Both the position numbers and the translations under genes were made by a program. A DNA stretch of 64,000 bases, taken from a candidate division FCPU426 bacterium. Lineage in GTDB: Bacteria; Oederibacteriota; Muellerivitia; Muellerivitales; Muellerivitaceae. Position 1 is the first letter of the stretch, and every line of letters starts with the position of its first letter. The stretch is from contig CAWCKJ010000003.1 in the NCBI GenBank assembly GCA_963796105.1, forward strand, positions 160,001 to 224,000. The letters run 5' to 3'. The notes beneath the pieces were generated by a model, which was not told the DNA's origin, did no database searches, and saw only the letters and a program-made list of their open reading frames with translations. Below, piece by piece: positions 7,812-44,658 of this stretch.

Positions 7812-10115
7812 ATGGATCTGCAAGAAATCCTTAATTCCATGGTGAATAAAAAGGCTTCAGACGTCCATTTGAAGGCGGGCGCCCCCCCTCTTTTCCGCAT
7901 TGACGGCGATTTAATCCCCCAAAGTGAAACCATTCTTTCCGCGCAGGAATTGGCGGAAGTCGCGTCTTATTTGATGGATGAGAAGCAGCAAAAACTGTTT
8001 TTCGAGGACCACCACGAGGTCGACCTGGCTTACGCCGTGGAGGGTTTGGCCCGTTTCAGGACGAACGCCATGTGGCAGAGGGGTCTTCCGGAAATCATCA
8101 TGCGGGTTATTCCCCAGATCGTCCCGCGGATTGAGGACATCAACATGCCGACCTCGGTGTTGAAGCAAATCGCCATGGAACCCCGAGGGTTGGTCCTGGT
8201 CACGGGAATAACGGGTTCAGGGAAATCAACCACCCTCGCGGCCCTCATCCACGAGATCAACGTGAACCGCTCCGCCCATATCGTGACCGTTGAAGATCCC
8301 ATCGAGTTTGTCCACCAGGACGCCAAATCCAGCATGACTCAAAGGGAGGTGGGACTAGACACTGAAAACTTTAAAACGGCCTTGAAATTCGTGTTGCGGC
8401 AGGACCCCGATGTCATACTTATCGGGGAAATGCGCGACGTGGAGACGGTCCAGGCCGCCATTACGGCCGCAGAAACCGGCCATTTGGTGTTTTCCACCCT
8501 GCATACTATGGATACCATTCAAACGATAGAGAGAATTTTGGACTTTTTCCCGCCCGATCAGCAAAACCAAATGAGGATCCAGTTATCCAATACCTTGCGA
8601 GCCGTTATCTCTCAACGCTTGGTTTCTAAGGCCGACGGCGCCGGTGTCGTTCCAGCCTGTGAAATCATGGTCGTGACACCCACCATCAAATCCCTTATCG
8701 CCGATGATAAAATCAGCTCGATTCGCGGTTATATCGCGGAGGGTCATAGCCAATATGGAATGCAGACTTTCGACCAATCCTTGATCGAACTGGTTCGAAA
8801 GGGCTTCATTACCCGGGAAAGCGCCATGGAACAGGCCACGTCCCCCAGCGAAATTGATCTTGGGTTGAAGGGGATTTCATCCTCCAAGGCCTCCGCCCAG
8901 TCCTTGATTTCACAAATGGAGACTTCTCAACAAAAAGAGCGGGTTTCCGGCTGGCTAAAGCGGGCGCAGGATCTTTATGAAAGAAGGCGCAATGACGAGG
9001 CAAAAGCGGAGCTAAAACGCATTCTGCAGGAAATGCCGGAACATAAGGAGGCGAACGCGCTGATGGCCCGTTTGCGTGAAATGGAGGACAAAACCGACAA
9101 GAAAAAAGACGCCTCATCCTCGGTTAAAACCGCTCTTCAATTGTACCGGGAAGGCAAGTTCCAGGCCGCTATCCTGGAATTTCAAAAAGCCTTGGAAATA
9201 GACCCGGGAAACAAGCAGGCCGAAGCTTATATCCGCTCCATTCAAACCGAAATGGACAACCGCGTTCGCGCGAGGGAGTTTGTCCAGGCTGGGATGCAGA
9301 AACAACAGCAAAATGACATGGTGTCCGCCCTGAGCCAATTGGAACAAGCGCTCATTTTGGATCCTGATAATGAGCAGGCGCAGGTGCTGCAAAAGGACAT
9401 TAAAAACACTCTTCAAAAGGACCAAGCCAGGGAAAAAGCCAAGGAACAAAACCAAATCGCCATTGATTTATACAAGGCGGGTGATTTACTGGGCGCTCTA
9501 GTCGCATGGAATAAGGCCTATGAGCTGAATTCCGAGCTGGAAGAAGTCTCGCGCTATTTGCAGCAGGGGATCGCCAAACTTCTGTCCTTCGGGGTGGAAG
9601 GGCTTGAGGGAAATCCGGAAACCCAGAACATCCTAGCGCTCTTTGAGCAGGGAGTTCGGAGTTACGTGCGAAGCGATTTCCAGACCGCGATTGAGTTTTT
9701 TAAAAAAGCCCTCGCCAAGGCCGACGGCAACGCCTATTTAAACGCCTACCTGCAAAAGTCCCTGCAGATGGAGGAACAGCAAGTCGAAGAATTGTTCCAT
9801 GAGGGTTTAAAGGCCCAGGAGTCGGGCGACTTGGCCGCGGCGCTAAAAGAGTACAATAAGATCTTGAGGCTCTCGCCGGGGCACCCGGAAACCGTGAAAC
9901 AACTCGGCGTCTTAAAAGCGACGATTCAGCAGAAAACCGAGGCTTTGTACACCGAGGGTAAAGTTTATTTCGACCAGAATGACATGGATAAGGCCGTTCG
10001 TATTTGGGAAAAAATACTTTACCTCGATCCTTCCAATGAACGCGCTAAAAAGAAAATTGAAGAAGCAAAAATCAAAAAAAGCACCTTATCCGGTATCTTT
10101 TCAAAGATAAACTAG
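7812..10115 (+). CDS. pilT: PilT/PilU-family type IV pilus retraction ATPase fused to a ~410-aa TPR region
   Basis: ASDVHL, Walker A GITGSGKST, EDPIE, LRQDPDVILIGEMRD, STLHT, GMQTFDQSL; TPR-like repeats after ~aa 355. Confidence 0.92.
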   Translation: MDLQEILNSMVNKKASDVHLKAGAPPLFRIDGDLIPQSETILSAQELAEVASYLMDEKQQKLFFEDHHEVDLAYAVEGLARFRTNAMWQRGLPEIIMRVIPQIVPRIEDINMPTSVLKQIAMEPRGLVLVTGITGSGKSTTLAALIHEINVNRSAHIVTVEDPIEFVHQDAKSSMTQREVGLDTENFKTALKFVLRQDPDVILIGEMRDVETVQAAITAAETGHLVFSTLHTMDTIQTIERILDFFPPDQQNQMRIQLSNTLRAVISQRLVSKADGAGVVPACEIMVVTPTIKSLIADDKISSIRGYIAEGHSQYGMQTFDQSLIELVRKGFITRESAMEQATSPSEIDLGLKGISSSKASAQSLISQMETSQQKERVSGWLKRAQDLYERRRNDEAKAELKRILQEMPEHKEANALMARLREMEDKTDKKKDASSSVKTALQLYREGKFQAAILEFQKALEIDPGNKQAEAYIRSIQTEMDNRVRAREFVQAGMQKQQQNDMVSALSQLEQALILDPDNEQAQVLQKDIKNTLQKDQAREKAKEQNQIAIDLYKAGDLLGALVAWNKAYELNSELEEVSRYLQQGIAKLLSFGVEGLEGNPETQNILALFEQGVRSYVRSDFQTAIEFFKKALAKADGNAYLNAYLQKSLQMEEQQVEELFHEGLKAQESGDLAAALKEYNKILRLSPGHPETVKQLGVLKATIQQKTEALYTEGKVYFDQNDMDKAVRIWEKILYLDPSNERAKKKIEEAKIKKSTLSGIFSKIN

Positions 10116-10225: not shown

Positions 10226-10624
10226 ATGAAAAAATTGATCATAGGCATCTTGATATTAATCGGCTTCTTTTTTATGGCCCTTAATACATCCATGCTCGCT
10301 GACCAGGCGTTGAAATGGGTGCAGGAAAATCCCAAGGATCCGCATGCTCCTAAAGTCCTATATGAAGCTGCCCGTTGGTGCGACATCATGGGCGACAATA
10401 AAAAAGCTTTGGAGGTTTATTGGGATCTTTACCAACAATATCCCGGCAGTTCCTCCCTCTGCGCCGCGTCTCTCTATTACAGCGCTCAAATCCAGGTGGA
10501 TACGAGTGTTTCGAAAAAACTCGCGGATCCTTTTTTGAAGATTATATTAGACCAGTATTTTAGCGAGACTGAGTGGGTGGAAAAAGCCAGAAAGTTACAG
10601 GACGAGGTGAATTATGTTCGCTGA
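10226..10624 (+). CDS. Small exported or membrane-anchored TPR-like protein
   Basis: N-terminal hydrophobic segment; helical-repeat pattern (ALEVYWDLYQQYP); 3' end overlaps the next gene. Confidence 0.7.
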   Translation: MKKLIIGILILIGFFFMALNTSMLADQALKWVQENPKDPHAPKVLYEAARWCDIMGDNKKALEVYWDLYQQYPGSSSLCAASLYYSAQIQVDTSVSKKLADPFLKIILDQYFSETEWVEKARKLQDEVNYVR

Positions 10625-11588
10625 AAAGAATAAATATATTGGTTTGGCCGGTTTGGTCTGCCTGATAAGCATGGGTTTGGCTTCATCAGGGATTTGTAAA
10701 ACCACCGAGGGGGAGGATGAAAATGACCACCTATCCCCGCCCCCTACCCCTATATCCGCTGATCGATACCGAAAAATGAATCAGGCGGATCAAGAAAAAT
10801 CCGTTAAAACGCTGAAAACCGCCAAGAAGGAAAAATCGGAAGTTTCATCCGCAACCTCCCCCGCCGCCCAGGTAAGGGCGGGGGATAATATAAGCGTCTA
10901 TTATTTCACGAAAGCTGGTTTTGTAATAACACAGCCATCCCAATTACCTTCATTGGGTAAAGTGGTTGGGGACCTTAGCGAGACGAACGCCTCCGGCCCG
11001 GGCGTTTTAAGTTACAGCCAAGCGAAAAAACCTTATATTGAATATTCCTCCAAGGCTGAGTTAAATATAGACGATTTACTGGTTGTTTATTCGATTTCTC
11101 CGGAAAATATTAATGAACCCGAATCGAATTTTTCCGGTTTTCTGGTTGAAAACAGGGCTATCGTAAAGGTGATTTCTGTCCAAAAGAAGTATTGCCAAGT
11201 GGAGATCGTTAAATCCTTCGTTGCTTTTCACGCGGGAGACCGTGTCCGGCCATACAGCGATGAGCTTCAAAGATGGACAAAGGCTCAAACTAAAAAACCA
11301 CTTCCCTCAAATGAAATCCATTGTTATGTATGCGGTGGAGAGGTTCAAAAAACAGCTTATTCCCAGTCGGATTTCATCATCTTGACCGCCGGCACGAACA
11401 AGGGTGTGGTTGAGGGACAAGTATTTCATCTAAAACAATTAGTTAAGAACGTGGAATTGAGGGAGGATCTTCATGCCTTCCGGGGTTCGGCGCGCGTATT
11501 TTTCGCGGGATCCAATTACTCCATGGCCCAAATTCTTTCCAGCAACGAATCCATCCAAAAAGGGTTTGAGGCGGTTTACAATCCCTGA
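10614..11588 (+). CDS. Exported protein resembling the TsaP/FlgT C-terminal domains (no LysM seen)
   Basis: Signal peptide; GFV...GKVVG...YI and IILTAGTNKGVVEGQVF...AQILSSNESIQKG patterns. Confidence 0.55.
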   Translation: MFAEKNKYIGLAGLVCLISMGLASSGICKTTEGEDENDHLSPPPTPISADRYRKMNQADQEKSVKTLKTAKKEKSEVSSATSPAAQVRAGDNISVYYFTKAGFVITQPSQLPSLGKVVGDLSETNASGPGVLSYSQAKKPYIEYSSKAELNIDDLLVVYSISPENINEPESNFSGFLVENRAIVKVISVQKKYCQVEIVKSFVAFHAGDRVRPYSDELQRWTKAQTKKPLPSNEIHCYVCGGEVQKTAYSQSDFIILTAGTNKGVVEGQVFHLKQLVKNVELREDLHAFRGSARVFFAGSNYSMAQILSSNESIQKGFEAVYNP

Positions 11589-11611: not shown

Positions 11612-12469
11612 ATGGATTCCTTGAAAAACAAAACAGTTGAAGAAGACCCCTTTTTTTTAAAGATTCTTGAACATGTATTGGCCGAAAAAGGATTCGACGG
11701 CACGCATTACAAAATCAATTATATCAAGAGAAGGGTGGCAGTCCGAATGCGGGCATCCGGAACCCGCGATTACTTGGAATATTATCAGGCGTTAAAAAAA
11801 AACCGGGATGAAGTATCACTGCTGTTTGACCGTTTTACCATTCATGTGACGGATTTTTTCAGGGATGCCGAAGTTTACAATTCCATGAAGTTAAAAGTAC
11901 TTCCTGAAATTTTTCGGCAACCGGGATCCAGCCTTAAGATTTGGTGCGCCGGATGCAGCACGGGGCAAGAGCCTTATTCCATCGCCATCACTTTGAGGGA
12001 AAACAGCCCCAAGTACGCGGAGAAGAATATTAAAATCATCGCCACCGATATTGACGATGCCAGCATTCGTTTTGCCGAGCGGGGGACCTATCCCATTGCT
12101 TCACTGAAAAAACTCTCGAGCCAACAAATGAGCAAGTGGTTTTTGAACGAGGGGGAAAAAGCGCGCATATCCCAGGAATTGAGGGACTCGGTAAGGTTCA
12201 AAACGCATGATTTACTTGGACGTTGGGATTCGGATTTTTCGGATTTTAACCTTATATTATGTAGGAATCTCCTTATTTACCTTTCGGCGGTCCGCCAGCA
12301 AAAACTTTATCAAGGGTTTCACAAAGCATTGCGTCCGGATGGGTATTTGATTCTTGGTTTGACGGAAACATTAATGGGCGGGGCTCGTGAATTATTCCGC
12401 TGCGTTGACGTGAAGAACCGAATCTACAAAGTTTGCGGTTCAAAAACGCCTTCTGACAGAGGGGCTTGA
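11612..12469 (+). CDS. cheR: Protein-glutamate O-methyltransferase CheR
   Basis: TDFFRD, IWCAGCSTGQEPYSIA, IIATDID, ILCRNLLIY. Confidence 0.95.
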   Translation: MDSLKNKTVEEDPFFLKILEHVLAEKGFDGTHYKINYIKRRVAVRMRASGTRDYLEYYQALKKNRDEVSLLFDRFTIHVTDFFRDAEVYNSMKLKVLPEIFRQPGSSLKIWCAGCSTGQEPYSIAITLRENSPKYAEKNIKIIATDIDDASIRFAERGTYPIASLKKLSSQQMSKWFLNEGEKARISQELRDSVRFKTHDLLGRWDSDFSDFNLILCRNLLIYLSAVRQQKLYQGFHKALRPDGYLILGLTETLMGGARELFRCVDVKNRIYKVCGSKTPSDRGA

Positions 12470-12475
12470 GGGAAA

Positions 12476-13657
12476 ATGGATAAGGCACAGGATCATATTA
12501 ATCTCGGAACCGCTTTCACTCTTTCTAAACGGTATGACGACGCGATTGTGGAGTTTAAAAAAGCGCTGGTCTTGAGCCCATCGGATGGTGAAATCCTTTT
12601 TCAATTGGGGGGATTATGCACCAATATCGGGAATTACGAGGAAGCTGAGAATTATTACCACGACGCGCTATCCATCAACCCGATGAATTTAAACGCGCAT
12701 TGCAAATTGGGTTTGTTATTGGAAGTCCAGGGCAAGTACCAGGAATCCATACAAGAATTTCAAAAAGCCACTGAATTGAATCCGACTGACGCGGGCCTTT
12801 ACAACAACCTGGGAAATGTCTATTCGAAAATGGGCAGGTATCAGGAAGCCATTGATCAGTTTAAAAAATACACTGGCATCAATCCGAGCAACGCGGAAAT
12901 TTTCTTCAAAATGGGTTTTTCATTTGAACAGTTGGGCAGGCTTGATGAGGCCATCAACTCCTATGAACGAGCTCTAGTCCTAAATCCCCGACACGCGGCT
13001 GTTTACTCCATCCTGGGAAACGCTTACGCGAAAAAAGGGGATTATCAGGAGGCCATATCGCTTTATCAACAGGCCCTTCGATTAAATCCTCAAGAGCCGG
13101 AAGTCCATTTAAAATTGGGGGTGGCCTTCATGTCGCTCGGCCAATACGACAAGGCCTTGTCTGTTTTGGAGGAGGCGCGTCAAAAAAACCCGCAGAATGC
13201 CGAGGTTTATTTGAAGTTTGGGATGATTTACGCGGGCCGCGGCCAGCATGAGGAGGCCATTCAAATGTACCGAAAGGTCATGGAGATTAATCCCCATGAC
13301 GCAAGCGTCCATAATGTCTTGGGTTACATTTATGACCGGCAGGGAGACGCGGAAAAAGCCATGGAGGAATACCGCGCCGCCAAACTCATCAACCCCAATG
13401 ACATATTAATCTTGGATAATCTCGGGAACTTGAATTATAAACAAGGCCATTTTGATGAGGCGGCCCAGGATTTCGAGAGCTTGCTTCAATTGAATCCGCT
13501 GCATAGTGATGCCCACGCGAAGCTGGGAAATGTTTATTTAAAGAAAGGCGAAAAGAACAAGGCCGTCACCCACTGGGAAAAAGCCTTGGAACTTGATCCG
13601 TCCAATGAGATCCTCAAGAACAATTTAAGAATTGTCAAAGGAAGTCCCACGGCATGA
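12476..13657 (+). CDS. TPR repeat protein (about 11 repeats)
   Basis: Consecutive 34-aa units NLG..Y...G.Y.EAI..F.KA..LNP. Confidence 0.92.
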   Translation: MDKAQDHINLGTAFTLSKRYDDAIVEFKKALVLSPSDGEILFQLGGLCTNIGNYEEAENYYHDALSINPMNLNAHCKLGLLLEVQGKYQESIQEFQKATELNPTDAGLYNNLGNVYSKMGRYQEAIDQFKKYTGINPSNAEIFFKMGFSFEQLGRLDEAINSYERALVLNPRHAAVYSILGNAYAKKGDYQEAISLYQQALRLNPQEPEVHLKLGVAFMSLGQYDKALSVLEEARQKNPQNAEVYLKFGMIYAGRGQHEEAIQMYRKVMEINPHDASVHNVLGYIYDRQGDAEKAMEEYRAAKLINPNDILILDNLGNLNYKQGHFDEAAQDFESLLQLNPLHSDAHAKLGNVYLKKGEKNKAVTHWEKALELDPSNEILKNNLRIVKGSPTA

Positions 13658-14292
13658 TGAAGACCCAGGAAAAATCCCTCGGTGAATTATTGCGTCAGGC
13701 TGGGAAAATCACCTCCCGCCAAATTCAAGTGGCGTTATCGGAACAAAAAATAACCCATGAACCCATTGGGAAAATTCTTGTTTCACTTGGTTTTGTGGAG
13801 GAGAGGGATATTTTGCAGGTCATGGAAGGCATGGTGGTATTGACGTTCCGCATGGATAAAGAGCTGTTCGGGGTGGAAACTTTCCGCGCGCGAGAGGTCT
13901 TGAAATACACTGTATTAAAACCATTTGAAAATAAAGTTGGAAATTGGGAAGGGCATCTTGCCCTTCGCGGTGAGGAAATCCCAGTTTTGTCATTCAGGAA
14001 ATTCCTTGAGGTTCCCGCGACGGGTCCCGTGGAACGGAGCTGGTTCATTATCCTTGAGAAAAAGGGGAGGCCTTTCGCCCTTTGGGTGGACGAGGTCAGG
14101 GAAGTAACCCGCTTTAAAATCGATCAAATCGAGCCGGTTCCGCTTTATCTTTTGGGAAAAAAAACAGAATTGTATTATTGTTTAGGTAAAATAAAAGATG
14201 ACCTTTACTCGATCATCAATCCGGATAATTTAGTGGAAGATGTTCCCGAAAAGCCGCCGTTAATTGGAAAAAACCATGCCAGCTCAACCTGA
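13654..14292 (+). CDS. cheW: MshEN-like domain fused to CheW
   Basis: N-terminal SLGELLRQAGKITSRQIQVALSEQ-x5-PIGKILVSLG; CheW fold after aa ~58 (FGVE...REV, LRGEEIPV, LWVDEVREV). Confidence 0.8.
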   Translation: MMKTQEKSLGELLRQAGKITSRQIQVALSEQKITHEPIGKILVSLGFVEERDILQVMEGMVVLTFRMDKELFGVETFRAREVLKYTVLKPFENKVGNWEGHLALRGEEIPVLSFRKFLEVPATGPVERSWFIILEKKGRPFALWVDEVREVTRFKIDQIEPVPLYLLGKKTELYYCLGKIKDDLYSIINPDNLVEDVPEKPPLIGKNHASST

Positions 14293-16486
14293 AACAAAAA
14301 CCATCCGTGAATTAGCCCACGGAAGCGATCAAGGCGACGCGTCCACCCACAATAATTTGGGGGTTTTTTATTATTCCAAGGGCATGTACGCGGAAGCTAT
14401 CAAGGAATTTAAAACTGCGCTTGAGATCGATCCCGAGAACACCCAAGCATTGGAGAATCTGAAGGCCGTCAACCGGCACACGGGCCTTTACGACCGTTCG
14501 ATTGAAGCCTACAAAAAATCGACCCAAATGTTTCCATCGGATTCCGAGGCTAGTTATAACCTCGCCAATTCCTACCGGTATACGGGTCAATATGAAAAAG
14601 CAATCGTTGAATACCAGAAAACCATCGCCTTAAATCCAGAACATCCTTTCGCTAGAAACTACCTTGGTATCACTTACAAGTGCACGGGCCAGTTGGAGGA
14701 GGCCATTAAGGAATTCAAGAAAGCCATCGATGACAACCCCTATTACGCTGATCTTCATAACAATTTAGGCGAGGTTTATTACAAAAAAGCCATGTTGAAT
14801 GAGGCTCTCGTTGAGTTTAAAAAGGCCATTTCTCTTAACCCTGACTATGCCATCGCGCACTACAACTTGAGCTTCGTTTATGGCGATAAGAACATGCTGG
14901 AAGAGGCCGAGAGGGAGTTCAAGAAAGCGGTGGATTTGAACCCTAATTTCGGGCAGGGAGCGCAGGCGCTTTTGTCGATTGAGCGCGCGAAAAGCATGGA
15001 GGAGAAAGTCGCCGAGAAAATCGCTTCCGCCCCCCCCGCTCCCTCCGTGGAAACATACCTTAGTTTAGCGTCCGCTTACAGCGGGAAAGGACTCCTGGAT
15101 GAGGCCATCAGGGAATATAAAAGAGCCATTGAGGCCATGCCGAATGAGGAAAAATCCTACCGGGCTTTGGGTGAAATCTACCTACAGAAGGGCCTGATCG
15201 AGGACGCGTTAATGTCGTTCCAGAAGGCTATCGATATTTCACCCACCGACATCGAGAACTATATACAGCGGGGGATAGCCCTTCGGGAATTGAACCGTTG
15301 CGACGAATCGGTGAGCGAGTTTAAAAAAGCCATAGAATTAACGCAGAATTCCAGCAAGGCTCATTTTGAGATGGGAGTCACCTACTTCAAAATGGGTGAA
15401 ACTGAAAATGCCACGAGGGAAATTAGAAAAGCCCTGGAAATAGACCCTGAGAACGCTGAGGCGCATTATTATCTTGGCGTTTACTATTACAAAGTCAATC
15501 TTTACGACGAGGCCATCCGGGAGATCACCCAGGCCGTGGAGTTGGACGTCTCCATCGCCTCAAGCGCTGAGGCCCTTATTTATTTGGGATTGGCCCTGGC
15601 TGACAAAGGCCGTTTTGAGGAAGCCATCGCAGAGTATAAGAAGGCGATGGAATTGGACCCTAAAAACCCGATTATCCATAATAGTTTGGGAGTGGCCTAT
15701 AAAAACGCCGGAATGATCGATGATGCCATCCAGCATTATCAGAAGGCCATTTCCATCAACCCTCAATACGCCAAGGCCTATAATAATTTGGGAGTTGTTT
15801 ATTTTAAAATGAGCCAATATGAGAAAGCGATCGAAACATTCAAAAAAGCTGTCGAAATAGAGCCGGAATATAAAACGGCTCAAAATAACCTTTCAGTGGC
15901 CATGAAAAAGCGGATCGTTCTTTCCGAGGCATCGGAGGTTTTGATTAAGCAAATTATGGCTGACCCGGAAAATTATGCCTTGCATCAAAACCTCGGCATG
16001 CTTTACAAAAATACGGGGCAACACTCGGAAGCCGTACGCGAGTTCCAGGAAACCATACGCTTGAATCCGAAAAACCGGGAAGCTTTAACCCAACTCGGCG
16101 ACACTCATCTCCTGCTGGGGCATTTGGATGAAGCTGTCAAGGTGCTGGCTAAGGCAATTTCCTGCGACCCTACCCATCCGGACGCGCATATGCAATTGGG
16201 CAAGGTTTATATCCAACGCCAATGGTGGGATGAGGCTTTGGTTGAGTTCAAAAAGAGCCTGGAAGGAAATAAGAATTCCCCGGAGGTATATTATTATCTC
16301 GGCCAAGTCTACCGGTTCAAAGGCTGGTGGGACGACGCCATCCAAAAAATGCAAATGTACCTGGATTCAGCCAATACCGAGGAGGACAAGGTCATACAGG
16401 CCATCGATATCATCCAGCAAATCCAAGTTTGGCGAAAAGAACTCCAAGTTTCCCCGAGCGGGGACAAGGCGAAATATATAAAATAG
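14276..16486 (+). CDS. Large cytoplasmic TPR scaffold (roughly 19-20 repeats)
   Basis: TPR consensus over nearly the whole length; no signal peptide; ATG at 14276 chosen over the upstream TTG. Confidence 0.9.
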   Translation: MPAQPETKTIRELAHGSDQGDASTHNNLGVFYYSKGMYAEAIKEFKTALEIDPENTQALENLKAVNRHTGLYDRSIEAYKKSTQMFPSDSEASYNLANSYRYTGQYEKAIVEYQKTIALNPEHPFARNYLGITYKCTGQLEEAIKEFKKAIDDNPYYADLHNNLGEVYYKKAMLNEALVEFKKAISLNPDYAIAHYNLSFVYGDKNMLEEAEREFKKAVDLNPNFGQGAQALLSIERAKSMEEKVAEKIASAPPAPSVETYLSLASAYSGKGLLDEAIREYKRAIEAMPNEEKSYRALGEIYLQKGLIEDALMSFQKAIDISPTDIENYIQRGIALRELNRCDESVSEFKKAIELTQNSSKAHFEMGVTYFKMGETENATREIRKALEIDPENAEAHYYLGVYYYKVNLYDEAIREITQAVELDVSIASSAEALIYLGLALADKGRFEEAIAEYKKAMELDPKNPIIHNSLGVAYKNAGMIDDAIQHYQKAISINPQYAKAYNNLGVVYFKMSQYEKAIETFKKAVEIEPEYKTAQNNLSVAMKKRIVLSEASEVLIKQIMADPENYALHQNLGMLYKNTGQHSEAVREFQETIRLNPKNREALTQLGDTHLLLGHLDEAVKVLAKAISCDPTHPDAHMQLGKVYIQRQWWDEALVEFKKSLEGNKNSPEVYYYLGQVYRFKGWWDDAIQKMQMYLDSANTEEDKVIQAIDIIQQIQVWRKELQVSPSGDKAKYIK

Positions 16487-16493
16487 GGGCACA

Positions 16494-16832
16494 ATGAAAC
16501 TACTTCTTTGCATCATTCCTCCCAAAAAGATCGAGCAAGTCAAAAAAGCATTGTGGGAAGCGGGAGTCAGGGGTGTTACGCTATCGGAAGGGTCGGGCTA
16601 TGGATATCAAAAGGTCCAAGTCGATTCAGTCCGCGGGACGGATTATAAAGTACAGTATCAGGAACGTATCCGTTTGGAAATTGTTTTGCCGGATGAGGAT
16701 GTTGAAAAGGTCATTGAGCTGCTGCTTGAAAACATCCGGACTGGGAGGATCGGCGACGGAAAAATTTTTGTTATTCCGGTCGAGGAAGTTGTGCGGGTGC
16801 GGACTGGCGAAAGAGGGGAAAGCGGTTTGTAA
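16494..16832 (+). CDS. P-II family signal transduction protein, atypical
   Basis: 112 aa; G35-x-G37-x-Q39-K40, R47-G48, Y51, TGRIGDGKIF, RVRTGE. Confidence 0.95.
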   Translation: MKLLLCIIPPKKIEQVKKALWEAGVRGVTLSEGSGYGYQKVQVDSVRGTDYKVQYQERIRLEIVLPDEDVEKVIELLLENIRTGRIGDGKIFVIPVEEVVRVRTGERGESGL

Positions 16833-16912
16833 ACCGGGTTGAACCGGCCGGATTCGCGGGCATTTGCCTCAATTGATGATCGAAAATGTGATTTCCTTAA
16901 GAGGAGGATAGA

Positions 16913-17275
16913 GTGGCCCAACGTGTTTTAATCGTGGATGACGCCTCGTTCATGCGGATGATGCTGAAAAATATCTTAGCCGGTGCGGGTTATGAGATAG
17001 CCGGAGAGGCTGAAAACGGCGCGAAAGCGATTGAGCAGTATATGGCCTTGAAGCCGGATTTAATCATCATGGACATCATCATGCCTGAAATGGGGGGCAT
17101 CGACGCGGTCCGGCAAATCATCAAGAACGTACCGAACGCGAAGATCCTTATTTGCAGTTCCATGGGCCAGCAATCCTTAGTGGTTGAGGCCATCCAAGCC
17201 GGGGCAAAAGACTATATTGTGAAACCATTCCAACCCTCTAATGTGCTGGAAGCGGTTAAAAAAGCGTTGGCCTGA
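16913..17275 (+). CDS. cheY: Response regulator CheY
   Basis: IVDDASFMR, MDIIMP, YIVKPF. Confidence 0.95.
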   Translation: MAQRVLIVDDASFMRMMLKNILAGAGYEIAGEAENGAKAIEQYMALKPDLIIMDIIMPEMGGIDAVRQIIKNVPNAKILICSSMGQQSLVVEAIQAGAKDYIVKPFQPSNVLEAVKKALA

Positions 17276-17331: not shown

Positions 17332-17967
17332 ATGGGCAAGGAATTCGAGTCGTTCTCGGAACTTCAACTTGACGCTTTGAGGGAAATTGGAAACGTGGGA
17401 GCGGGTAACGCCGCGACGGCCCTTTCGCAAATGGTCGGCCAGCCCATTGAAATGTCTGTGACGAGAGTCAAGGTCCTGCCCACGGAAGAAATAGCGAAAT
17501 TCCTGGGCGGCATGGAAAAAAACGTGGCCGCTGTGTACTTGCCCATATACGGTGATATCTCAGGCGTGGTACTTATCTTTTTTCCCATCGAGATCCTTCC
17601 GGGCCTAGCGGTATTTTTACTTCAAAAAGAAATCACGAGTTCCGATCTTAACGAGTTGGACCGCTCGGCCATCAAGGAATTGGGCAGTATCCTGACGGGC
17701 GCCTATTTGAGCGCCCTGTTCCGTTTTATCCAGGTCCAAATGATCCATGGCGTCCCGACCCTCGTGGTGGATATGGCCCAAGCCATCCTGGACACGGTCT
17801 TGGTGGATCTGGAGCAAAAAGAGGAGATTGCGATAGTGATTGAAACGGAGTTTTTGGAAAAGGAAAGGAAAATAACAGGCAGCTTTTTTCTTTTACCCGA
17901 AACCGGCGCCTTGGAAAGGTTTTTTGCCTCATTTTCCAAATCCTTTGGATCTTCCGGTAATGCATGA
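17332..17967 (+). CDS. cheC: CheY-P phosphatase CheC
   Basis: DALREIGNVGAGNAATALS; second site SAIKELGS. Confidence 0.93.
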   Translation: MGKEFESFSELQLDALREIGNVGAGNAATALSQMVGQPIEMSVTRVKVLPTEEIAKFLGGMEKNVAAVYLPIYGDISGVVLIFFPIEILPGLAVFLLQKEITSSDLNELDRSAIKELGSILTGAYLSALFRFIQVQMIHGVPTLVVDMAQAILDTVLVDLEQKEEIAIVIETEFLEKERKITGSFFLLPETGALERFFASFSKSFGSSGNA

Positions 17968-18445
17968 AACCGATTGGGTTGTAGGAATCGCCGAAATCAG
18001 GACGGCTAAAAGCCCGGACCGGCTTGTGGCCTATGGCTTAGGCTCCTGTGTCGGTATCGCGTTATATGATCCCCTCCTCAAACTGGGAGGTTTGGCGCAC
18101 CCCATGCTGCCCTCGAGCCGGTTTCATCCATTGTCAAAATCCAAGGGAAAATTCGTGGACTCGGCACTTGAGGAGCTTATTCATCAAATGGTGGGGGAGG
18201 GAGGTGAAATAAGCCGATTTCAAGCCAAACTGATCGGTGGCGCGAACATGTTTAACTCTATCATAAAAACACCTCTCACCATTGGTGTCCGCAACGCGAT
18301 GGCGGCCAGGGAGGTACTGGGAAACCGCCAAATATCGATCGTCGGGGAGGAAGTAGGCGGAACCCAAGGCCGGACCGTTTATTTCTCATTGTCTGATGGG
18401 ATGGCGCAAATCCGGAAGTTTAACCAAGAGGATGTGCGTATTTAA
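17960..18445 (+). CDS. cheD: Chemoreceptor glutamine deamidase CheD
   Basis: GLGSCVGIALYD, GGLAHPMLP, AKLIGGANMF, GGTQGRT. Confidence 0.95.
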   Translation: MHETDWVVGIAEIRTAKSPDRLVAYGLGSCVGIALYDPLLKLGGLAHPMLPSSRFHPLSKSKGKFVDSALEELIHQMVGEGGEISRFQAKLIGGANMFNSIIKTPLTIGVRNAMAAREVLGNRQISIVGEEVGGTQGRTVYFSLSDGMAQIRKFNQEDVRI

Positions 18446-18582
18446 TTCAAGCGACTGTTAAGGGAAAACCTTTTTTCGGCTGTAGGGTTTGCGGGGGATC
18501 AAAACCCATTTGAACTTTTGTTGATTTTTCGTTTATTCGAATAAACTTTGCCGCTCAACCAGGATTATTGGGGAAAAATCAA

Positions 18583-19089
18583 ATGACGATGGACAATTCA
18601 AGCGAAACACAAACGTTAGACTTGGCCGCTGGACAAAATCAAGTGATTGTTTTTGAGCTTTCGGGATGTTTGTTCGGATTGGATATCCTGCAGGTTCTTG
18701 AAATTATCCGTTTGGTAGAGATGACATTAGTCCCCAAGACGCCAGCGTTCTTAGAGGGGATCATTCACTTGAGGGGAAAAATCATTCCGGTCATGGATTT
18801 GAAAAAACGCTTTGGTTTGCCGCTTGCTGATTATTGCCAGGAAAGCCGGATTCTTATCGTGCAATGGCAAGATCAAACGATGGGTTTTTTAGTGGACAAG
18901 GTATTGGAGGCAGGCCGTGTTTTTTCGAAGTCGGTCATTCCGGTGAAGGAGCCCATTCTCGACATAAACCCTATTTATCTGGAGGGCCTCATAAGCTGGA
19001 AGGGAAAAACGGTTTTGATGATCAAGCTGGAAAAAGTTTTTTGGGCTGAAAAGTGGAAGGGAAATTCTGAATACGAAATGAATATTTAG
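18583..19089 (+). CDS. cheW: Coupling protein CheW
   Basis: FGLDILQVLEII, LEGIIHLRGKIIPVMDL, GFLVDKV. Confidence 0.93.
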   Translation: MTMDNSSETQTLDLAAGQNQVIVFELSGCLFGLDILQVLEIIRLVEMTLVPKTPAFLEGIIHLRGKIIPVMDLKKRFGLPLADYCQESRILIVQWQDQTMGFLVDKVLEAGRVFSKSVIPVKEPILDINPIYLEGLISWKGKTVLMIKLEKVFWAEKWKGNSEYEMNI

Positions 19090-19102
19090 GAGGAGTGGAC
19101 CT

Positions 19103-19465
19103 TTGACCTACCGCGTCTTATTTGTCGACGATTCGTCTTTCATGCGCACCATATTGAAAGGTATCATCCTGAAGGAACCTTATGTTCTGGCGGGGGAAGC
19201 CTCAAACGGAAAAGAGGCCTTGGAAATTTTTAAGCGTGAGAATCCGGATCTCATCACGATGGATATTGTTATGCCGGAGATGGATGGCATTGAAACCGTG
19301 CGTCAAATACGGGAAATTAAACCTGACGCTAAAATTATTATGGTGAGCGCCATGGGCCAGCAGAGCATGGTCATTGAGGCCATTCAGGCGGGAGCGAGAG
19401 ATTTCATCATCAAGCCCTTCCAGCCGCCGCGCGTCCAAGAAGCCTTGAAAAGAGTCATGGGTTAA
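19103..19465 (+). CDS. cheY: Response regulator CheY (second copy)
   Basis: FVDDSSFMR, MDIVMP, FIIKPF; TTG start with AGGAGGAG RBS. Confidence 0.95.
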   Translation: MTYRVLFVDDSSFMRTILKGIILKEPYVLAGEASNGKEALEIFKRENPDLITMDIVMPEMDGIETVRQIREIKPDAKIIMVSAMGQQSMVIEAIQAGARDFIIKPFQPPRVQEALKRVMG

Positions 19466-19500
19466 GATTCTGGAACACATAATAATTTTAAAGGAATCTC

Positions 19501-20610
19501 ATGCCCAGTGAATTGATTCCGCCGGTACGAGTTCTTGTCGTGGACGACTCGTTTTTTATCAGGAAAATGTTATCTGAAATTCTCGGGGCGGCTGGAAACA
19601 ATATTATAGTGGTGGATACGGCTCAAGATGGGATCGAGGCCATCCATAAACTGAAAACACTCAAACCGGACGTGATTACGCTTGATGTGGAGATGCCCAA
19701 ATTAAACGGCATTGATACGCTGGAACGGATCATGAGTGAGAATCCGACTCCGGTAATTATGCTTTCGAGCCACACCGGAAAAGGAATGGAAATCACGCTT
19801 CGCGCCCTTGAAATCGGGGCGGTCGATTGCGTTTTAAAACCATCGGCAAAGCCGATGGTGGATTTAAGGGGCATCGAGCGTGAATTGATCGAAAAAATAA
19901 GAATGGCCGCCCTTTGCCGTCCCCGCCACGGTTTATTGTCTTTTGGGGGAATAGCGGCCGACGTTTTAAGGCCTGTGCCGGAGAAATCATCGCTCCCCAA
20001 TATGAGTAAAGCCGTTGCCGAGCGGCCCGCGAAGTTTTTAGTCGCCGTCGCCTCGTCGACGGGCGGTCCGAGGGCCTTGAATGAGCTTTTTTCGAAGATC
20101 GAACCGGAGCCCGCCACTTCCTTTCTCATTGTCCAGCATATACCGGTCGGGTTTACAAAGGCTTTGGCGAAAAGGCTTCAGGAAATCAGCGCCATGAAAA
20201 TCACCGAGGCGGCAAACGGTGAGATGATTCTAGCGGGTCACGCATATGTGGCGCCAGCCGGGAATCATTTAACGGTTGAGGGGAACCCCGGCCATTTCAG
20301 GTTTATCTTGAATGATTTACCCCCGCATTTGGGGGTAAAACCTTCCGCGGATATCCTCATGATTTCCGTGGCGCGAGCGTCGGGTAACCAGTGCGCGGGT
20401 GTGGTTTTAACCGGGATGGGCCATGATGGCACCGCGGGATTAAGGGAGATCCGTTCCGCGGGAGGCAAAACTTTCGCCCAGGACGCCGACAGTTGCGTGG
20501 TTTACGGCATGCCGAAATCCGCTTATGAATCGGGGGTCGTGGATCGCCAATTGACTTTGGACCGCATGGCGATAGAGTTGAACGCCTTAGCCGGGGGATT
20601 AAAAGATTGA
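19501..20610 (+). CDS. cheB: Methylesterase response regulator CheB
   Basis: REC domain plus ASSTGGP, VQHIP, LTGMGHDG catalytic motifs. Confidence 0.96.
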   Translation: MPSELIPPVRVLVVDDSFFIRKMLSEILGAAGNNIIVVDTAQDGIEAIHKLKTLKPDVITLDVEMPKLNGIDTLERIMSENPTPVIMLSSHTGKGMEITLRALEIGAVDCVLKPSAKPMVDLRGIERELIEKIRMAALCRPRHGLLSFGGIAADVLRPVPEKSSLPNMSKAVAERPAKFLVAVASSTGGPRALNELFSKIEPEPATSFLIVQHIPVGFTKALAKRLQEISAMKITEAANGEMILAGHAYVAPAGNHLTVEGNPGHFRFILNDLPPHLGVKPSADILMISVARASGNQCAGVVLTGMGHDGTAGLREIRSAGGKTFAQDADSCVVYGMPKSAYESGVVDRQLTLDRMAIELNALAGGLKD

Positions 20611-20717: not shown

Positions 20718-22799
20718 GTGAAAGAAATGGAATATAAAGAAATCTTTCTTAATGAGGCGAGGGAATATTTGTCCAATCTCAATAACTCCCTCGTGATTTT
20801 AGAGAAGGATCCGAGCCAACAAGAGGCTATCCGGGAAATATTCCGTGTCGCCCATACCTTGAAAAGCATGTCCGCGACCATGGGCTACGAGCCCATGTCT
20901 AGGCTCACGCACCAAATAGAATCCGTCATGGAACCCATCCGTTCGGGCTTGAAACCCCTTTCCCCCAAATTGGTTGACGCTCTTTTTATCTGTTTGGACC
21001 AACTTGAGGCTTGGGTCAAGGCCCTCGAGACCCAGGATGAGATTATTGAGGAGGGCTTGGAAGAAAAAATCAAAATGCTCGCGGATAACGGCGGGGAAAA
21101 CCCCGTTGACTTTTTCCCGGCAACCGAGGAAACGCGCCCCCTTAAGGAAACTGATCTTTTCAAATTAACAGAGTCCGAGGAGGAAGTTATCTCCCAAGCG
21201 CGGATGAGCGGTTTTTACGTTTACCAGATTAAAATCGAGCTGGACCCGGAATGCGTTTTTAAGGAAGCGAGGGCCTTTCTGGTGCTTCGGAATGTCAATG
21301 AACTCGGCGAAATTGTCAAATCCAGCCCCTCGTCGAAGGACTTGGAAAAAGCCAAATTTGACAGGGAGTTTTATTTGATTGTGGTTTCGGAGAAGACCCA
21401 GGAAATAATGAAAAGCGCGATCATGGGAATTTCTGAAATTCGGCAAGTGTTTGTTGGGGAATACCATCCCGGGTTGAAAACCGAGAGGGGGGATTCGCTT
21501 CACGATGCGGAGTTATCCCGCAAAGATATCAAGCGTGATGACGCCCATTTGCCTGAGGAAAAATCGTTCAATCTTCCCACTGTCAGGGTCCACACGTCAA
21601 AATTGGACAAACTCATGGCTCTCGTCCAGGAACTCATGATCTCGAAAAGCCGTTTTGAGCAAATTATCCATACACGGGATTTGAAAGAACTCAATGACCC
21701 CCTCTCCAGGTTAAGCTTTGTCACCGATGAGCTGCAGGATGAAATCATGAAAGTGAGGCTCATCCCGGTGAAACATATTTTTGAGAGGTTTCCCCGCATG
21801 GTCCGGGACCTGTCGAAAACCCTCGACAAAAAAATAAACCTGGAAATCGAGGGCGCGGAAGTGGAGCTGGACCGCTCCGTCATCGACGAAATCAGCGAAC
21901 CCATCGTTCACTTGCTTCGTAACGCCATCGACCATGGCATCGAGAATTCTGAGGTGCGAATCAAGGAAAGGAAAGAGGCTTTTGGCACTATCCGTCTTCA
22001 AGCCAAGCGGGACCGGTCTTATGTGGTCATTTCCGTGACCGATGATGGAAGAGGGATCGATCCGGAAAAGGTGCGCCTGACCTCTATCGCCAAGGGGCTG
22101 GTCTCGGCGGAAGAGGCCGGCAAAATGACCGACGAGGAGGCCCTGCGGTTGATCTGTCTCCCGGGCTTTTCCACGGTGGAAAATCCCACGGAGATCTCGG
22201 GGCGCGGAGTCGGGGTGGAAGTCGCCAAAACCAGGGTGGAGGCGATGGGAGGGAGTTTCAAGATCATCAGCCGGAAAAACCAGGGAACCACAATGATTCT
22301 CCGCTTCCCGTTGACTTTAGCTATCATCAAGGTCCTATTCGTGAAATGCCTCGAGGAAACATTCGCGATCCCGGTCGCGAGCGTAGTGGAAACGATTGAT
22401 TTGACCCAGGCGGAAATTAAGGTCGTGCAGCAGCAGGAAACATTTGTCCTGAGGGACGAAGTCATCCCTATATACCAGCTTTACGAATTGCTGGATTTGG
22501 ACGGGAAATCCGCCGCCAAAGAGCCGGCTGAATATGAGTCCCTTATAGTCGTGGAGGTGGGAGACTCAAGAATCGGCATTAAGGTTGACCTTGTTTTGGG
22601 CCAGCAAGAAGTTGCTATAAAATCGCTGGATAAGACTTTAAAGGGCATCAGGGGATATTCCGGGGCGACTATTTTAGGGAATGGGAGAATCGCCCTCGTT
22701 TTAGACGTGAACGGGTTAGTGGAAGACCTTAAGGATCGGCGGCTCAGGCTGGAATTCCCATTGCTTAAGAAAGGAGACTCCCATGCTGCCCAATCTTGA
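20718..22799 (+). CDS. cheA: Histidine kinase CheA
   Basis: HPt FRVAHTLKSMS, P2 domain, HLLRNAIDHG, DDGRG, GRGVG, C-terminal CheW domain. Confidence 0.97.
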   Translation: MKEMEYKEIFLNEAREYLSNLNNSLVILEKDPSQQEAIREIFRVAHTLKSMSATMGYEPMSRLTHQIESVMEPIRSGLKPLSPKLVDALFICLDQLEAWVKALETQDEIIEEGLEEKIKMLADNGGENPVDFFPATEETRPLKETDLFKLTESEEEVISQARMSGFYVYQIKIELDPECVFKEARAFLVLRNVNELGEIVKSSPSSKDLEKAKFDREFYLIVVSEKTQEIMKSAIMGISEIRQVFVGEYHPGLKTERGDSLHDAELSRKDIKRDDAHLPEEKSFNLPTVRVHTSKLDKLMALVQELMISKSRFEQIIHTRDLKELNDPLSRLSFVTDELQDEIMKVRLIPVKHIFERFPRMVRDLSKTLDKKINLEIEGAEVELDRSVIDEISEPIVHLLRNAIDHGIENSEVRIKERKEAFGTIRLQAKRDRSYVVISVTDDGRGIDPEKVRLTSIAKGLVSAEEAGKMTDEEALRLICLPGFSTVENPTEISGRGVGVEVAKTRVEAMGGSFKIISRKNQGTTMILRFPLTLAIIKVLFVKCLEETFAIPVASVVETIDLTQAEIKVVQQQETFVLRDEVIPIYQLYELLDLDGKSAAKEPAEYESLIVVEVGDSRIGIKVDLVLGQQEVAIKSLDKTLKGIRGYSGATILGNGRIALVLDVNGLVEDLKDRRLRLEFPLLKKGDSHAAQS

Positions 22800-23397
22800 T
22801 GACTTGACTTTGGCCCAGCTGGACGCGTTGAAGGAAGTCGGCAATATAGGCGCGGGCCATGGAGCGACAGCCCTATCCCAGCTCCTGCGTAAAAAAATAT
22901 TGATTACGGTCCCCAAGGCGAATGTCCTGCCGATCGAGGATGTGCCGAAATTAATGGGGGATCCCAATACCCTGGTGGCCGGCTTGATCTTGAATATTCT
23001 CGGCGACGCGACCGGTAAGATCATTCTTTTGTTCCCCCGGGACTCGGCCCTGCATTTGGCGGATTTGCTGTTAAAACAGGAAATCGGGACAAGCATGATC
23101 CTGACCGAAATGGGGCACTCCGCCATCAAGGAGGCCGGGAATATCCTTACGGGGGCTTACTTAAGCGCGTTAAACGAGTTTTTGGGAATGCTCTTGTTGA
23201 TTTCCGTTCCCACCCTGGTGTTTGACATGGCTGGGGCTCTTTTGAGAACCATCACCCAGGGGATGGAAGATGTCACGAAAGTCATTTGCATAGAAACCCA
23301 ATTTATTGACGCGAACGAGGTGGTGGCGGGATATTTTATTTTGGCCCCGGACGCGACATCCTTGAGGGCCATATTCCAGGCCATAAAGCTGAAATAA
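22783..23397 (+). CDS. cheC: CheC phosphatase (second copy)
   Basis: DALKEVGNIGAG and SAIKEAGNIL. Confidence 0.93.
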   Translation: MLPNLDDLTLAQLDALKEVGNIGAGHGATALSQLLRKKILITVPKANVLPIEDVPKLMGDPNTLVAGLILNILGDATGKIILLFPRDSALHLADLLLKQEIGTSMILTEMGHSAIKEAGNILTGAYLSALNEFLGMLLLISVPTLVFDMAGALLRTITQGMEDVTKVICIETQFIDANEVVAGYFILAPDATSLRAIFQAIKLK

Positions 23398-23623: not shown

Positions 23624-24706
23624 ATGATCTCCAACCAAATCATAGCGGCAAAAATCCAAATGTCCTTGAATCAATCAAAGTTGAATAGGACCCATTTAGT
23701 ATCCTGCTGCAGGGAAATTCTTGATAATTTCAAGTTCGACAGTGTTTTTCTTTGCCACTCCCCTTCGCCTGAGGCCGAATTGAAAAAAATCGCTTTTGAG
23801 GGCAAGGAAGAGATCATGGACGCCTGTATTTACCGCCTGGGAGTGGAAGAAAGGCTGGCCTTGACGAGGCTTTCGTATAAGACCTACACGGATATTACCG
23901 GAAAGCCCCTGTTCAATAAATCGGGGTCATTGAGGATTCAAAAACCCAACAGCGGGATTTACTTGGTCCATTTTCAGCCCAATAAGGATTTTTTAATATT
24001 CGGCTGCGCTCACCAGGAGCCGAGGACTTATGACTCATCCATCCTGAACGACTTGATCAGCGTTTGGAACTCGACAAAAGAAGGTTTGTGCGACGCGGCG
24101 CGGAAGGTACAAGGCTTGCCGGCGGACAATATAAAAAACTCGAGTCCGAATCCCCCGGCCCAAACTACGCAGACGAATTTGGATTTGAAATTGCCTGCTC
24201 CGCCATCAAGCCCCTTGAAAAACAAGCACCGTAAACCAGCGCTTCTGGTGGATGAGGTCACTAAACTGTTCAACAAGGATTATTTTGAGGATTGCCTGGC
24301 CATCGAGGTGGAAAGGGCGAAAAGGTACTCCAGGAATCTCAGCCTTTTGTTTTTAAGCGTGACGCCTTTGAGTCAAACGGCCCAAAACGAGAATGAAATA
24401 GCCCTTCAAATTTCGGAGATCCTTTCCCTGAGCCTGCGCCGGGTGGACGTGATTTGCAGGCTGGAAAAAAACAAATACGCCTTGATATTGCCTGATACCT
24501 CCACCAGTACCTATGGGACCATCGCGAAGCGTATTTTCAAGCATTTCAAGGAGGTGATGGGGGCAACCCCTCCCGTGTTCATCAACGTCAGCGCGTCGTC
24601 CTACCCGAAACACGCCGATAATCACCTCTCCTTGCTGCAAAATACCGAAAAACTTTTAACTCAGGCTAGAACCGCGGGCCCGAATAAGGCGGTCCTGCCG
24701 GAATAA
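23624..24706 (+). CDS. Degenerate GGDEF-domain protein with N-terminal GAF-like region
   Basis: DEVTKLFNKDYF..EVERAKRY; LRRVDVICRLEKNKY has the RxxD I-site but EKNKY in place of GGDEF. Confidence 0.8.
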   Translation: MISNQIIAAKIQMSLNQSKLNRTHLVSCCREILDNFKFDSVFLCHSPSPEAELKKIAFEGKEEIMDACIYRLGVEERLALTRLSYKTYTDITGKPLFNKSGSLRIQKPNSGIYLVHFQPNKDFLIFGCAHQEPRTYDSSILNDLISVWNSTKEGLCDAARKVQGLPADNIKNSSPNPPAQTTQTNLDLKLPAPPSSPLKNKHRKPALLVDEVTKLFNKDYFEDCLAIEVERAKRYSRNLSLLFLSVTPLSQTAQNENEIALQISEILSLSLRRVDVICRLEKNKYALILPDTSTSTYGTIAKRIFKHFKEVMGATPPVFINVSASSYPKHADNHLSLLQNTEKLLTQARTAGPNKAVLPE

Positions 24707-28715: not shown

Positions 28716-29579
28716 ATGAAAGACTCCATCCGGAAAGCCCAAATACTGGTTGAGGCTTTTCCTTACATCCGCCAATGGTTCGGGGCCACCGTGGTCGTAA
28801 AATACGGGGGCAGCACCCGCGCTGGGGCTGAGGAATTAAAGACAACCCTTCAAGACATTATTTTGATGAAGTTCGTCGGGATGAGGCCGGTCGTGGTCCA
28901 TGGGGGTGGAAAGGACATTACGCGCCTAACTGAAAAATTGGGAATCCATTCCCAATTCGTGGACGGACTGCGTGTTACTGATTTGCCGACCATGGAAGTG
29001 GTCGAGATGGTGCTCGGCGGAAAAATCAATAAAGAGTTGGTCAGCATGATCCACCATCTTGGCGGGCAAGCGGTCGGGCTGTCGGGGAAAGACGGCGCCA
29101 TGCTGGAGGCTTCCAGGGTGACCTCCAAAACCGGGAAAGATATCGGCTTTGTGGGAAAAGTCTCTAAGGTGAATACGGCCATATTAGAGATCCTGGATAA
29201 GGAGCAATTCATTCCCGTTATCGCACCCTTAGGGTTGGGAAAAGACGGCAACACTTATAACATCAACGCGGATGAGGCCGCAGGCGCAATCGCCGGGGCT
29301 TTGAAAGCCGCGAAACTAGTTTTTTTAACCGATGTTCCCGGCATCTGCAAGAATAAAGAAAACCCCAAAAGCCTCCTTTCAACCGTGAAAGTGAAGGATG
29401 TGGTAAAGCTCATCAAGTCGGGGGTGATTGAGGGGGGAATGATTCCGAAAGTAGAGGCTTGCCTTTCGGCCCTGAAGTCGGGGGTGAAGAAAACCCACAT
29501 TATCAACGGAACTCTTTCACACGCTTTATTATTGGAAATTTTCACCCCTGAGGGTGTTGGAACCGAAATAATACCGTAA
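28716..29579 (+). CDS. argB: Acetylglutamate kinase
   Basis: VVKYGG, VHGGG, GLRVT, YNINAD, GGMIPKV. Confidence 0.97.
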   Translation: MKDSIRKAQILVEAFPYIRQWFGATVVVKYGGSTRAGAEELKTTLQDIILMKFVGMRPVVVHGGGKDITRLTEKLGIHSQFVDGLRVTDLPTMEVVEMVLGGKINKELVSMIHHLGGQAVGLSGKDGAMLEASRVTSKTGKDIGFVGKVSKVNTAILEILDKEQFIPVIAPLGLGKDGNTYNINADEAAGAIAGALKAAKLVFLTDVPGICKNKENPKSLLSTVKVKDVVKLIKSGVIEGGMIPKVEACLSALKSGVKKTHIINGTLSHALLLEIFTPEGVGTEIIP

Positions 29580-44492: not shown

Positions 44493-44658
44493 GATCACGT
44501 GGATATTCAATTTTGTCCTAATTAAACAAAACATTCGAACAGTTCAATTTATAAAAGAACTATTCATATAACCATTAAGTAATATCCGTTCAATATTGGA
44601 CGGAACTTATAATGTATCACAAGAGAATAATAGTTGTCGCAAAAGGCGGAATATCATA

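Follow-up and report, generated by a model that had tools for sequence, protein, structure and literature searches.

A P-II protein of a separate clade, probably an adenine-nucleotide sensor, embedded in a chemotaxis-type operon of an uncultured bacterial phylum

Introduction

P-II proteins rank with the most widely distributed and most thoroughly studied sensors of metabolism. They are usually associated with nitrogen genes, and their known targets, in nitrogen and carbon metabolism, comprise enzymes, transporters and regulators of transcription.

For the canonical 2-oxoglutarate (2-OG) site, K58 is described as salt-bridged to the C5 carboxylate of 2-OG, the substitutions K58N and K58M being reported to abolish binding (PMC6908673), and Q39 is given as a ligand of Mg (PMC3198391). 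R9 is described as making an electrostatic contribution to the site with no hydrogen bond (PMC4282546). An earlier interpretation of the DNA letters, hereafter the sequence-only reading, had taken the contacts of canonical P-II residues with 2-OG as established; by these accounts, this is roughly right. Pocket residues do not predict 2-OG binding, since GlnK2 of A. fulgidus (Af-GlnK2) is reported to bind none despite a near-identical pocket (PMC3198391). Together with SbtB, which has N58, GlnK2 provides a described precedent for keeping adenine-nucleotide binding without 2-OG sensing (PMC6908673, PMC3198391).

Two further systems connect P-II proteins with signalling: GlnB is reported to bind the kinase NtrB (PMC6978683), and GlnZ of Azospirillum brasilense is reported to bind a diguanylate cyclase, a phosphodiesterase and a histidine kinase and to affect aerotaxis (PMC7646526). 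In both precedents, as far as these accounts go, it is a general P-II that acts in trans. A full-text search of the literature accessible outside subscription journals returned no paper on a P-II gene within a chemotaxis operon.

The locus described here lies in a stretch of 64,000 nucleotides (the window) from a candidate division FCPU426 bacterium. Its P-II is of the same length as canonical P-IIs, such as E. coli GlnB and GlnK, S. elongatus PII, A. brasilense GlnZ and Aquifex 2eg1, is colinear with them and has the same fold, with identical nucleotide-binding residues in the B- and C-loops and with Q39 and Y51 shared by the clade to which it belongs. Unlike canonical P-IIs, it lacks K/R9, F11, R38, G41, H42, Y46 and K58, is encoded in a che operon and not beside amtB, glnA or nif, falls into a separate clade and occurs in a genome without GlnD. 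As in the case of GlnB and NtrB, the P-II is encoded with, and plausibly acts on, a two-component phosphorelay (PMC6978683); the kinase here is, however, CheA, a candidate target with a weak mirror-tree signal. The association of a P-II with motility behaviour and c-di-GMP resembles GlnZ, as a GGDEF-domain protein closes the operon, yet GlnZ is described as a general, canonical P-II that is trans-acting and 2-OG-responsive (PMC7646526), whereas here a dedicated paralog lies within the operon itself. SbtB and GlnK2 differ in turn from the clade of the window protein in their transport contexts (bicarbonate and ammonium transporters), and their sequences are not close.

The P-II gene and its operon

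The P-II gene (16494-16832, forward strand) is an open reading frame with an ATG start encoding 112 aa, and its product matches Pfam PF00543 over residues 1-106 with 92.7 bits (cut-off 25). The best solved relative is the Aquifex P-II 2eg1, to which it aligns colinearly and without gaps over residues 1-111 (E 1.6e-33), and the best relatives of solved structure are all P-II. In an AF2 model (mean pLDDT 78.6, with the T-loop at a low confidence of ~55), the secondary structure follows the ferredoxin-like beta-alpha-beta-beta-alpha-beta pattern with the T-loop between strands 2 and 3, i.e. the element order of P-II, and the PDB matches listed by Foldseek for this model are exclusively P-II chains (TM 0.66-0.71, ~0.68). 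Scores against the NCBIfam equivalog models for GlnB/GlnK, i.e. NF008111 and NF007946, reach 95.5 and 97.2 bits and stay below both cut-offs (202 and 181, respectively), and the DarA/PstA c-di-AMP receptor model NF058593 gives 13.9 bits (cut-off 140; E 0.055), which does not indicate membership. By these models and by the predicted fold, the protein belongs to the P-II family proper, without being a GlnB/GlnK equivalog.

The B-loop reads T83-G-R-I-G-D-G-K-I-F92 and the C-terminal motif R101-V-R-T-G-E106; the ligand-site residues are P9, Y38, Q39, V41, Y51 and R58, residues 46-51 are VRGTDY, and K and R occupy positions 11 and 85. The residue assignments of the sequence-only reading, i.e. P9, Y38, V41 and R58 alongside a kept B-loop, C-loop, Q39 and Y51 in a colinear protein of 112 aa, thus all read as it had given them. 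The conserved residues point to a homotrimer that probably binds ATP/ADP in its inter-subunit clefts. The gene is under strong purifying selection, with a dN/dS of 0.043 in the comparison with its closest orthologue, synonymous sites being saturated relative to the remaining orthologues.

Pfam and NCBIfam models resolve the neighbourhood into one long series of genes, all on the forward strand. It is headed by a PilT-family ATPase with a C-terminal TPR arm (PilT-TPR, 7812-10115), followed by two conserved ORFs of 132 and 324 aa that are without a family match (10226-11588), the methyltransferase CheR (11612-12469), the 393-aa TPR protein TPR1 (12476-13657), CheW1, i.e. a CheW domain with an N-terminal extension (13654-14292), and the 740-aa all-TPR protein TPR2 (14264-16486). 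Then come the P-II, with its rewritten T-loop, W21/R26, R58 and canonical nucleotide-binding loops, and the receiver CheY1 with D9, D10, D54 and K104 (16913-17275). CheC1, CheD, CheW2, CheY2 and CheB follow in this order (17332-20610), succeeded by CheA and then CheC2 (20718-23397), and a GGDEF-domain protein (23624-24706) marks the end of the conserved block. The N-terminal extension of CheW1, of ~60 aa, is without a Pfam match.

The P-II gene begins 7 nt after the end of TPR2 at 16486 and is separated by 80 nt from the start of CheY1 at 16913, so that its reported position, 7 bp behind a giant TPR gene and in front of a cheY, agrees with the coordinates. This spacing suggests that P-II is co-transcribed with its neighbours. 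A promoter and terminator scan gave counts at the level of chance and reported no forward-strand site in 16440-16920. Neither amtB nor glnA was found among 51 of the 53 called window ORFs of at least 90 aa that were scanned (the other two being of 91 and 109 aa), in line with what had been noted before. Downstream of the GGDEF gene lie dprA, topA and then argB (28716-29579), 11.9 kb from the P-II gene. A link to argB had been raised with the caveat of coincidence; the distance is right and the link is most likely coincidental, as dprA and topA intervene and the protein has K11 and R85 in place of F11 and E85, the residues given as contacting NAGK (PMC6908673). ArgB was accordingly dropped as a target.

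In the whole genome (16 contigs, 4.98 Mb), there are seven P-II matches. The six others all carry K/R9, G41 and K58: one adjoins glnE, two each follow amtB, one is a C-terminal fusion to an amino-acid permease adjoining glnA, and two lie beside an OmpL-like porin (BBP2) and a CitMHS_2-type transporter (L101; G000:C4:1453787-1457910). Because of these six canonical P-IIs elsewhere in the genome, the che P-II is an extra, specialised copy. A GlnD model search of the genome gave only a weak match, to glnE (21.5 bits, cut-off 519), i.e. no GlnD, the modifier of GlnB/GlnK at Y51.

The permease fusion (AA_permease_2 with a canonical P-II domain) is 652 aa long and encoded on the reverse strand at L101:5201-7159, i.e. 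G000:C4:1451200-1453158, and long open frames of ~640-690 aa resembling it surround the P-II matches of many relatives. No fused che-type P-II was present among nine longer proteins at E <=1e-20, all of which combine an ordinary-type P-II (<=51 % identity) with Amt, GlnD-type, aminotransferase or GS domains.

Conservation in close relatives and across the phylum

A search of 5.8 billion proteins returned ~77 clusters with 65-90 % identity to the window P-II, below which identity falls sharply to <=54 % with the onset of ordinary P-IIs. Among 67 full-length representatives of this clade, W21, R26, Q39, V41, Q42, D50, Y51, Q56 and R58 are invariant (67/67), as are the B-loop and R101/R103, while position 9 holds S, P, A, T or N, K/R being absent there, and position 11 is K/R. 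Orthologue-bearing loci fetched from family f1 and the same order keep TPR2-PII-CheY1 in every case (20/20), with a P-II identity of 68-90 %, and the order of the whole operon is kept as well as far as the contigs reach. Best conserved among the operon products of these loci are P-II, CheY1, CheC2, the TPR proteins and PilT-TPR; CheR, CheA, CheB, CheD and CheW2 are less conserved (34-73 %). Four family-f1 genomes without the P-II had no match in a CheC2 search either.

A search of metagenome contigs by the clade alignment, which was seeded on motifs common to all P-IIs, returned only ordinary P-IIs (<=54 %). About 29 further metagenomic P-II clusters are of the W21/R26 type (P0082, P0132, P0145, P0146 and P0284-P0307), several of them with P, G or E at position 39 or K/Q at position 58.

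For the phylum as a whole, a profile built from more distant relatives sharing W21 was run on 99 genomes and gave matches in 49 of them (E <=1e-33), while a CheY1-type gene was found in 72; four further CheY matches (G027, G050, G052 and G053) are part of another che system. On inspection of the fetched loci, 66 of the 69 genomes with a CheY1-CheC-CheD block had a P-II as the immediate upstream neighbour of CheY1, and these 66 represent some 16 of the 23 families coded. There are three exceptions: in G087 and G088, the block stands without a P-II and the entire front module is absent, with recR, ybaB and dnaX upstream instead, and in G093 (L251, G093:C36) the order is CheR-TPR1-CheW1-CheY1-CheC-CheD, TPR2 and P-II both being absent. 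The comparison shows CheR, TPR1, CheW1, usually TPR2, and then P-II to be the front module of an F1-like CheA/W/Y/B/R/C/D operon.

A P-II phylogeny combined with gene neighbourhoods, which the sequence-only reading had proposed as a check, separated 66 che-embedded P-IIs from 118 ordinary P-IIs in a maximum-likelihood tree (SH-aLRT 94.4; quick search of 112 columns, with a poorly resolved inner structure). The 66 sequences stem from 65 genomes, as G069 has two copies, and three rows were left out, i.e. the permease-fused paralog and L071, both with long branches, and P0082, whose context is unplaced. We define the che-embedded clade by a position directly upstream of CheY1-CheC-CheD, the absence of K/R9 and of F11, a hydrophobic residue 38 and the grouping in the tree, and the window P-II has all of these features. 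It had been noted that the proposal of a special P-II would fall if this were the only P-II of its genome and grouped with ordinary GlnB/GlnK; it is one of seven and belongs to the separate clade. Tree and gene order together show the che-embedded P-IIs to be one monophyletic subfamily and a fixed part of a predicted che-type operon across this uncultured phylum.

The two copies of G069 (L212 and L213, on contigs C7 and C222) both have G39 instead of Q, and their T-loops differ in length.

These data bear directly on whether the P-II is merely a nitrogen regulator hitch-hiking in the operon and functionally unconnected to the che genes. P-IIs do act in trans on many targets, and many nitrogen-related P-II targets are encoded elsewhere in the genome, but a place between CheW1/TPR2 and CheY1 kept in 66 of 69 genomes from ~16 families, the loss of P-II along with either the operon or its front module, the separate clade and the six canonical P-IIs already at hand make hitch-hiking extremely improbable. 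A P-II fixed in a che-type operon suggests that a behaviour pathway receives the cell's energy or nutrient state as a direct internal input, and a monophyletic P-II kept in such an operon through the phylum's whole history would extend the outputs of the P-II family to behaviour and signalling arrays.

Ligand-site residues

As a reference, we used 111 ordinary colinear P-IIs of 112 aa, drawn from the matches nearest to the query. Position 9 is K in 89 and R in 18 of these, position 38 is R in 87 and Q in 18, G41 is present in 109 and K58 in all 111, with Y46 in 107 and E50 in 105; position 11 in ordinary P-IIs is F. In a library of 1.84 billion proteins, the best 150 representatives at 50 % identity carry K at position 58 in 145 cases, R in four and Q in one.

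In the che-embedded P-IIs, G24, G35, G84, D88, G89, K90, R101, R103, T104 and E106 are present in all 66, G37 and E62 in 65, T83, G87 and F92 in 64 and R85 in 63, and the nucleotide-binding residues fall within this invariant or near-invariant set. Conversely, K/R at position 9, F at position 11 and R at position 38 are each found in 0/66; position 38 is Y in 34, I in 12, F in 11, V in six, L in two and M in one. Position 39 is Q in 44, H in 12, E in four, R in three and G in two, with one gap, G41 is left in only five and Y51 in 42. Position 58 is R in 47, K in 15 and Q in four, and the pair of Q39 and K58 occurs jointly in 10/66.

We read the conserved function of the che-embedded family as adenine-nucleotide binding, and on this residue pattern its members are most likely ATP/ADP sensors. 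The earlier prediction that ATP/ADP binding is retained is borne out to the extent that the nucleotide-binding loops, from which such binding would be expected, are invariant in the clade. Judged from the same alignment, the subfamily does not conserve canonical 2-OG sensing in the Mg-ATP/Q39/K58 mode. For the window's own clade, which keeps Q39 and has R58, 2-OG sensing may survive in a changed form or may be lost.

A protein of this kind might still be a 2-OG sensor, with R58 replacing the K58 salt bridge and Q39 ligating Mg, in which case the operon would respond to the C/N status rather than just to energy charge. The invariance of Q39 and R58 in the window's clade (67/67) would fit such a role, as would the alternation of K and R at position 58 within one genus, which suggests that a basic residue matters there, and the binding of GlnZ to c-di-GMP enzymes is described as 2-OG-responsive (PMC7646526). 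On the other side, K58 appears to be normally irreplaceable, being present in 111/111 ordinary P-IIs and in 145/150 representatives, and within the family G41 is nearly always gone, K/R9 always, and Q39 in 22/66. We regard continued 2-OG sensing as rather doubtful.

R58 had also been listed among the altered residues that led the sequence-only reading to propose a different effector. G089 and G090, two species of the same genus, have K58 and R58, respectively, so that R58, considered in isolation, argues only weakly for a new function, and we dropped it as a marker. Nor is there any other sign of a new ligand; across the family the Q39/K58 pair decays, and R58 by itself is a conservative swap. 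The notion of a rebuilt pocket (no K9; Y38, V41 and R58) that binds another carboxylate or a cyclic dinucleotide could appeal to the clade-specific, invariant residues around the T-loop's base, i.e. Y38, V41, Q42, Q56, R58 and R60, and to SbtB, a P-II-like relative with other ligands (PMC6908673). It is countered by the distance of the DarA c-di-AMP receptor score from its cut-off and by the fact that the pocket residues differ among the che-embedded lineages, for which relaxation or co-evolution with a partner fits better than a new conserved ligand site, and we consider it improbable.

The che-embedded lineage seems to have shed the ligands of 2-OG and kept the nucleotide site, which would make it a natural case of a chemosensory pathway reading an internal state. 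The natural variants, i.e. K58, R58 or Q58, Q39, H39 or E39, and T-loops of several lengths, could serve to dissect 2-OG sensing from partner choice.

Partners, mechanism and output

Clues to a partner come from covariation of the P-II with its operon. TPR2 is encoded immediately upstream of P-II in 57 loci and is absent in family f3, where P-II abuts CheW1 directly (four loci). The segment from G37 to residue 58 has 19-20 residues in these four f3 P-IIs and 21-25 in the 57 TPR2 loci, 55 of which have exactly 22, and the T-loop is conserved within each lineage and different between lineages. The T-loop shortening in f3 and the joint loss in G093 are independent of each other, and both hint at a link of TPR2 with P-II and its T-loop.

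A second clue concerns helix 1. W21 and R26 co-occur in 34/34 sequences, which form one tree group with weak support, and in 0/32 of the others. The carriers make up precisely families f1, f2, f3 and f14, in which PilT-TPR heads the operon as far as the contigs extend, and the ~4-13 kb fetched upstream of CheR showed no PilT ATPase domain in 12/12 loci of seven other families. This correlation of W21/R26 with PilT-TPR is a single evolutionary event; the TPR2 and PilT-TPR correlations each trace back to one or two events in the evolution of related genomes. Both residues are presumably surface-exposed on helix 1, because their positions vary in ordinary P-IIs.

The neighbour on the downstream side is always CheY1, and no other protein of the operon is conserved as well (62-94 % identity across the phylum). 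Mirror-tree partial correlations, which are exploratory and non-independent, were 0.35 for CheA, 0.34 for CheD, 0.30 for CheC2, -0.19 for TPR2 and -0.31 for the GGDEF protein; they do not favour TPR2 as a partner, and we gave them little weight. A complex prediction for TPR2, CheY1 and P-II had a score of 0.01, with the mark at 0.32, and counts for neither side. We rank TPR2, via the T-loop, first among the candidate partners, followed by CheA, by analogy with GlnB and NtrB, and by PilT-TPR, via W21/R26.

On balance, we lean towards a P-II dedicated to this pathway, in which the nucleotide state sets the T-loop and docking on an operon partner lets the energy state gate signalling. The protein would form the usual trimer with ATP or ADP in the inter-subunit clefts, and nucleotide occupancy would determine the conformation of the lineage-specific, internally invariant T-loop. 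The latter, together with the derived W21/R26 pair on helix 1, would dock on an operon-encoded partner, through which the cellular energy state would come to gate the signalling of the pathway.

It is tempting to go further and to speculate that the P-II is the pathway's intracellular input, that ATP/ADP occupancy makes a rigid T-loop engage and release the TPR2 scaffold, and that in the PilT lineages the W21/R26 patch also retains the PilT-type ATPase by its TPR arm, the energy state then directly gating both CheA signalling and pilus retraction. We hold this detailed scheme to be possible and, on present evidence, rather unlikely as a whole; if true, it would amount to a receptor-independent metabolic input to the chemosensory array.

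As for the output, the rest of the genome contains four MCP genes, a second CheA and one FliG. The reading of the operon as the flagellar system was dropped as a generalisation, since operon and FliG occur apart: in G030 and G066 (100 % complete each) the operon includes the P-II and there is no FliG_C match at E <=1e-10, and G013 (99 % complete) and all five family-f5 genomes have FliG and no operon. The description of the protein as a motility-dedicated P-II therefore stands as to its tie to the che pathway, which synteny and the monophyletic clade support, and does not extend to the output. In the PilT-bearing lineages, a motility output via type IV pili is plausible.

Other features of the window

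Elsewhere in the window, two giant ORFs of 2017 and 1618 aa lie adjacent to each other on the forward strand (52289-58342 and 58356-63212), neither having a Pfam match at E <=1e-5. The same strand also encodes a stand-alone PilZ-domain ORF (44596-45036) and a REP-associated tyrosine transposase (33610-34548).
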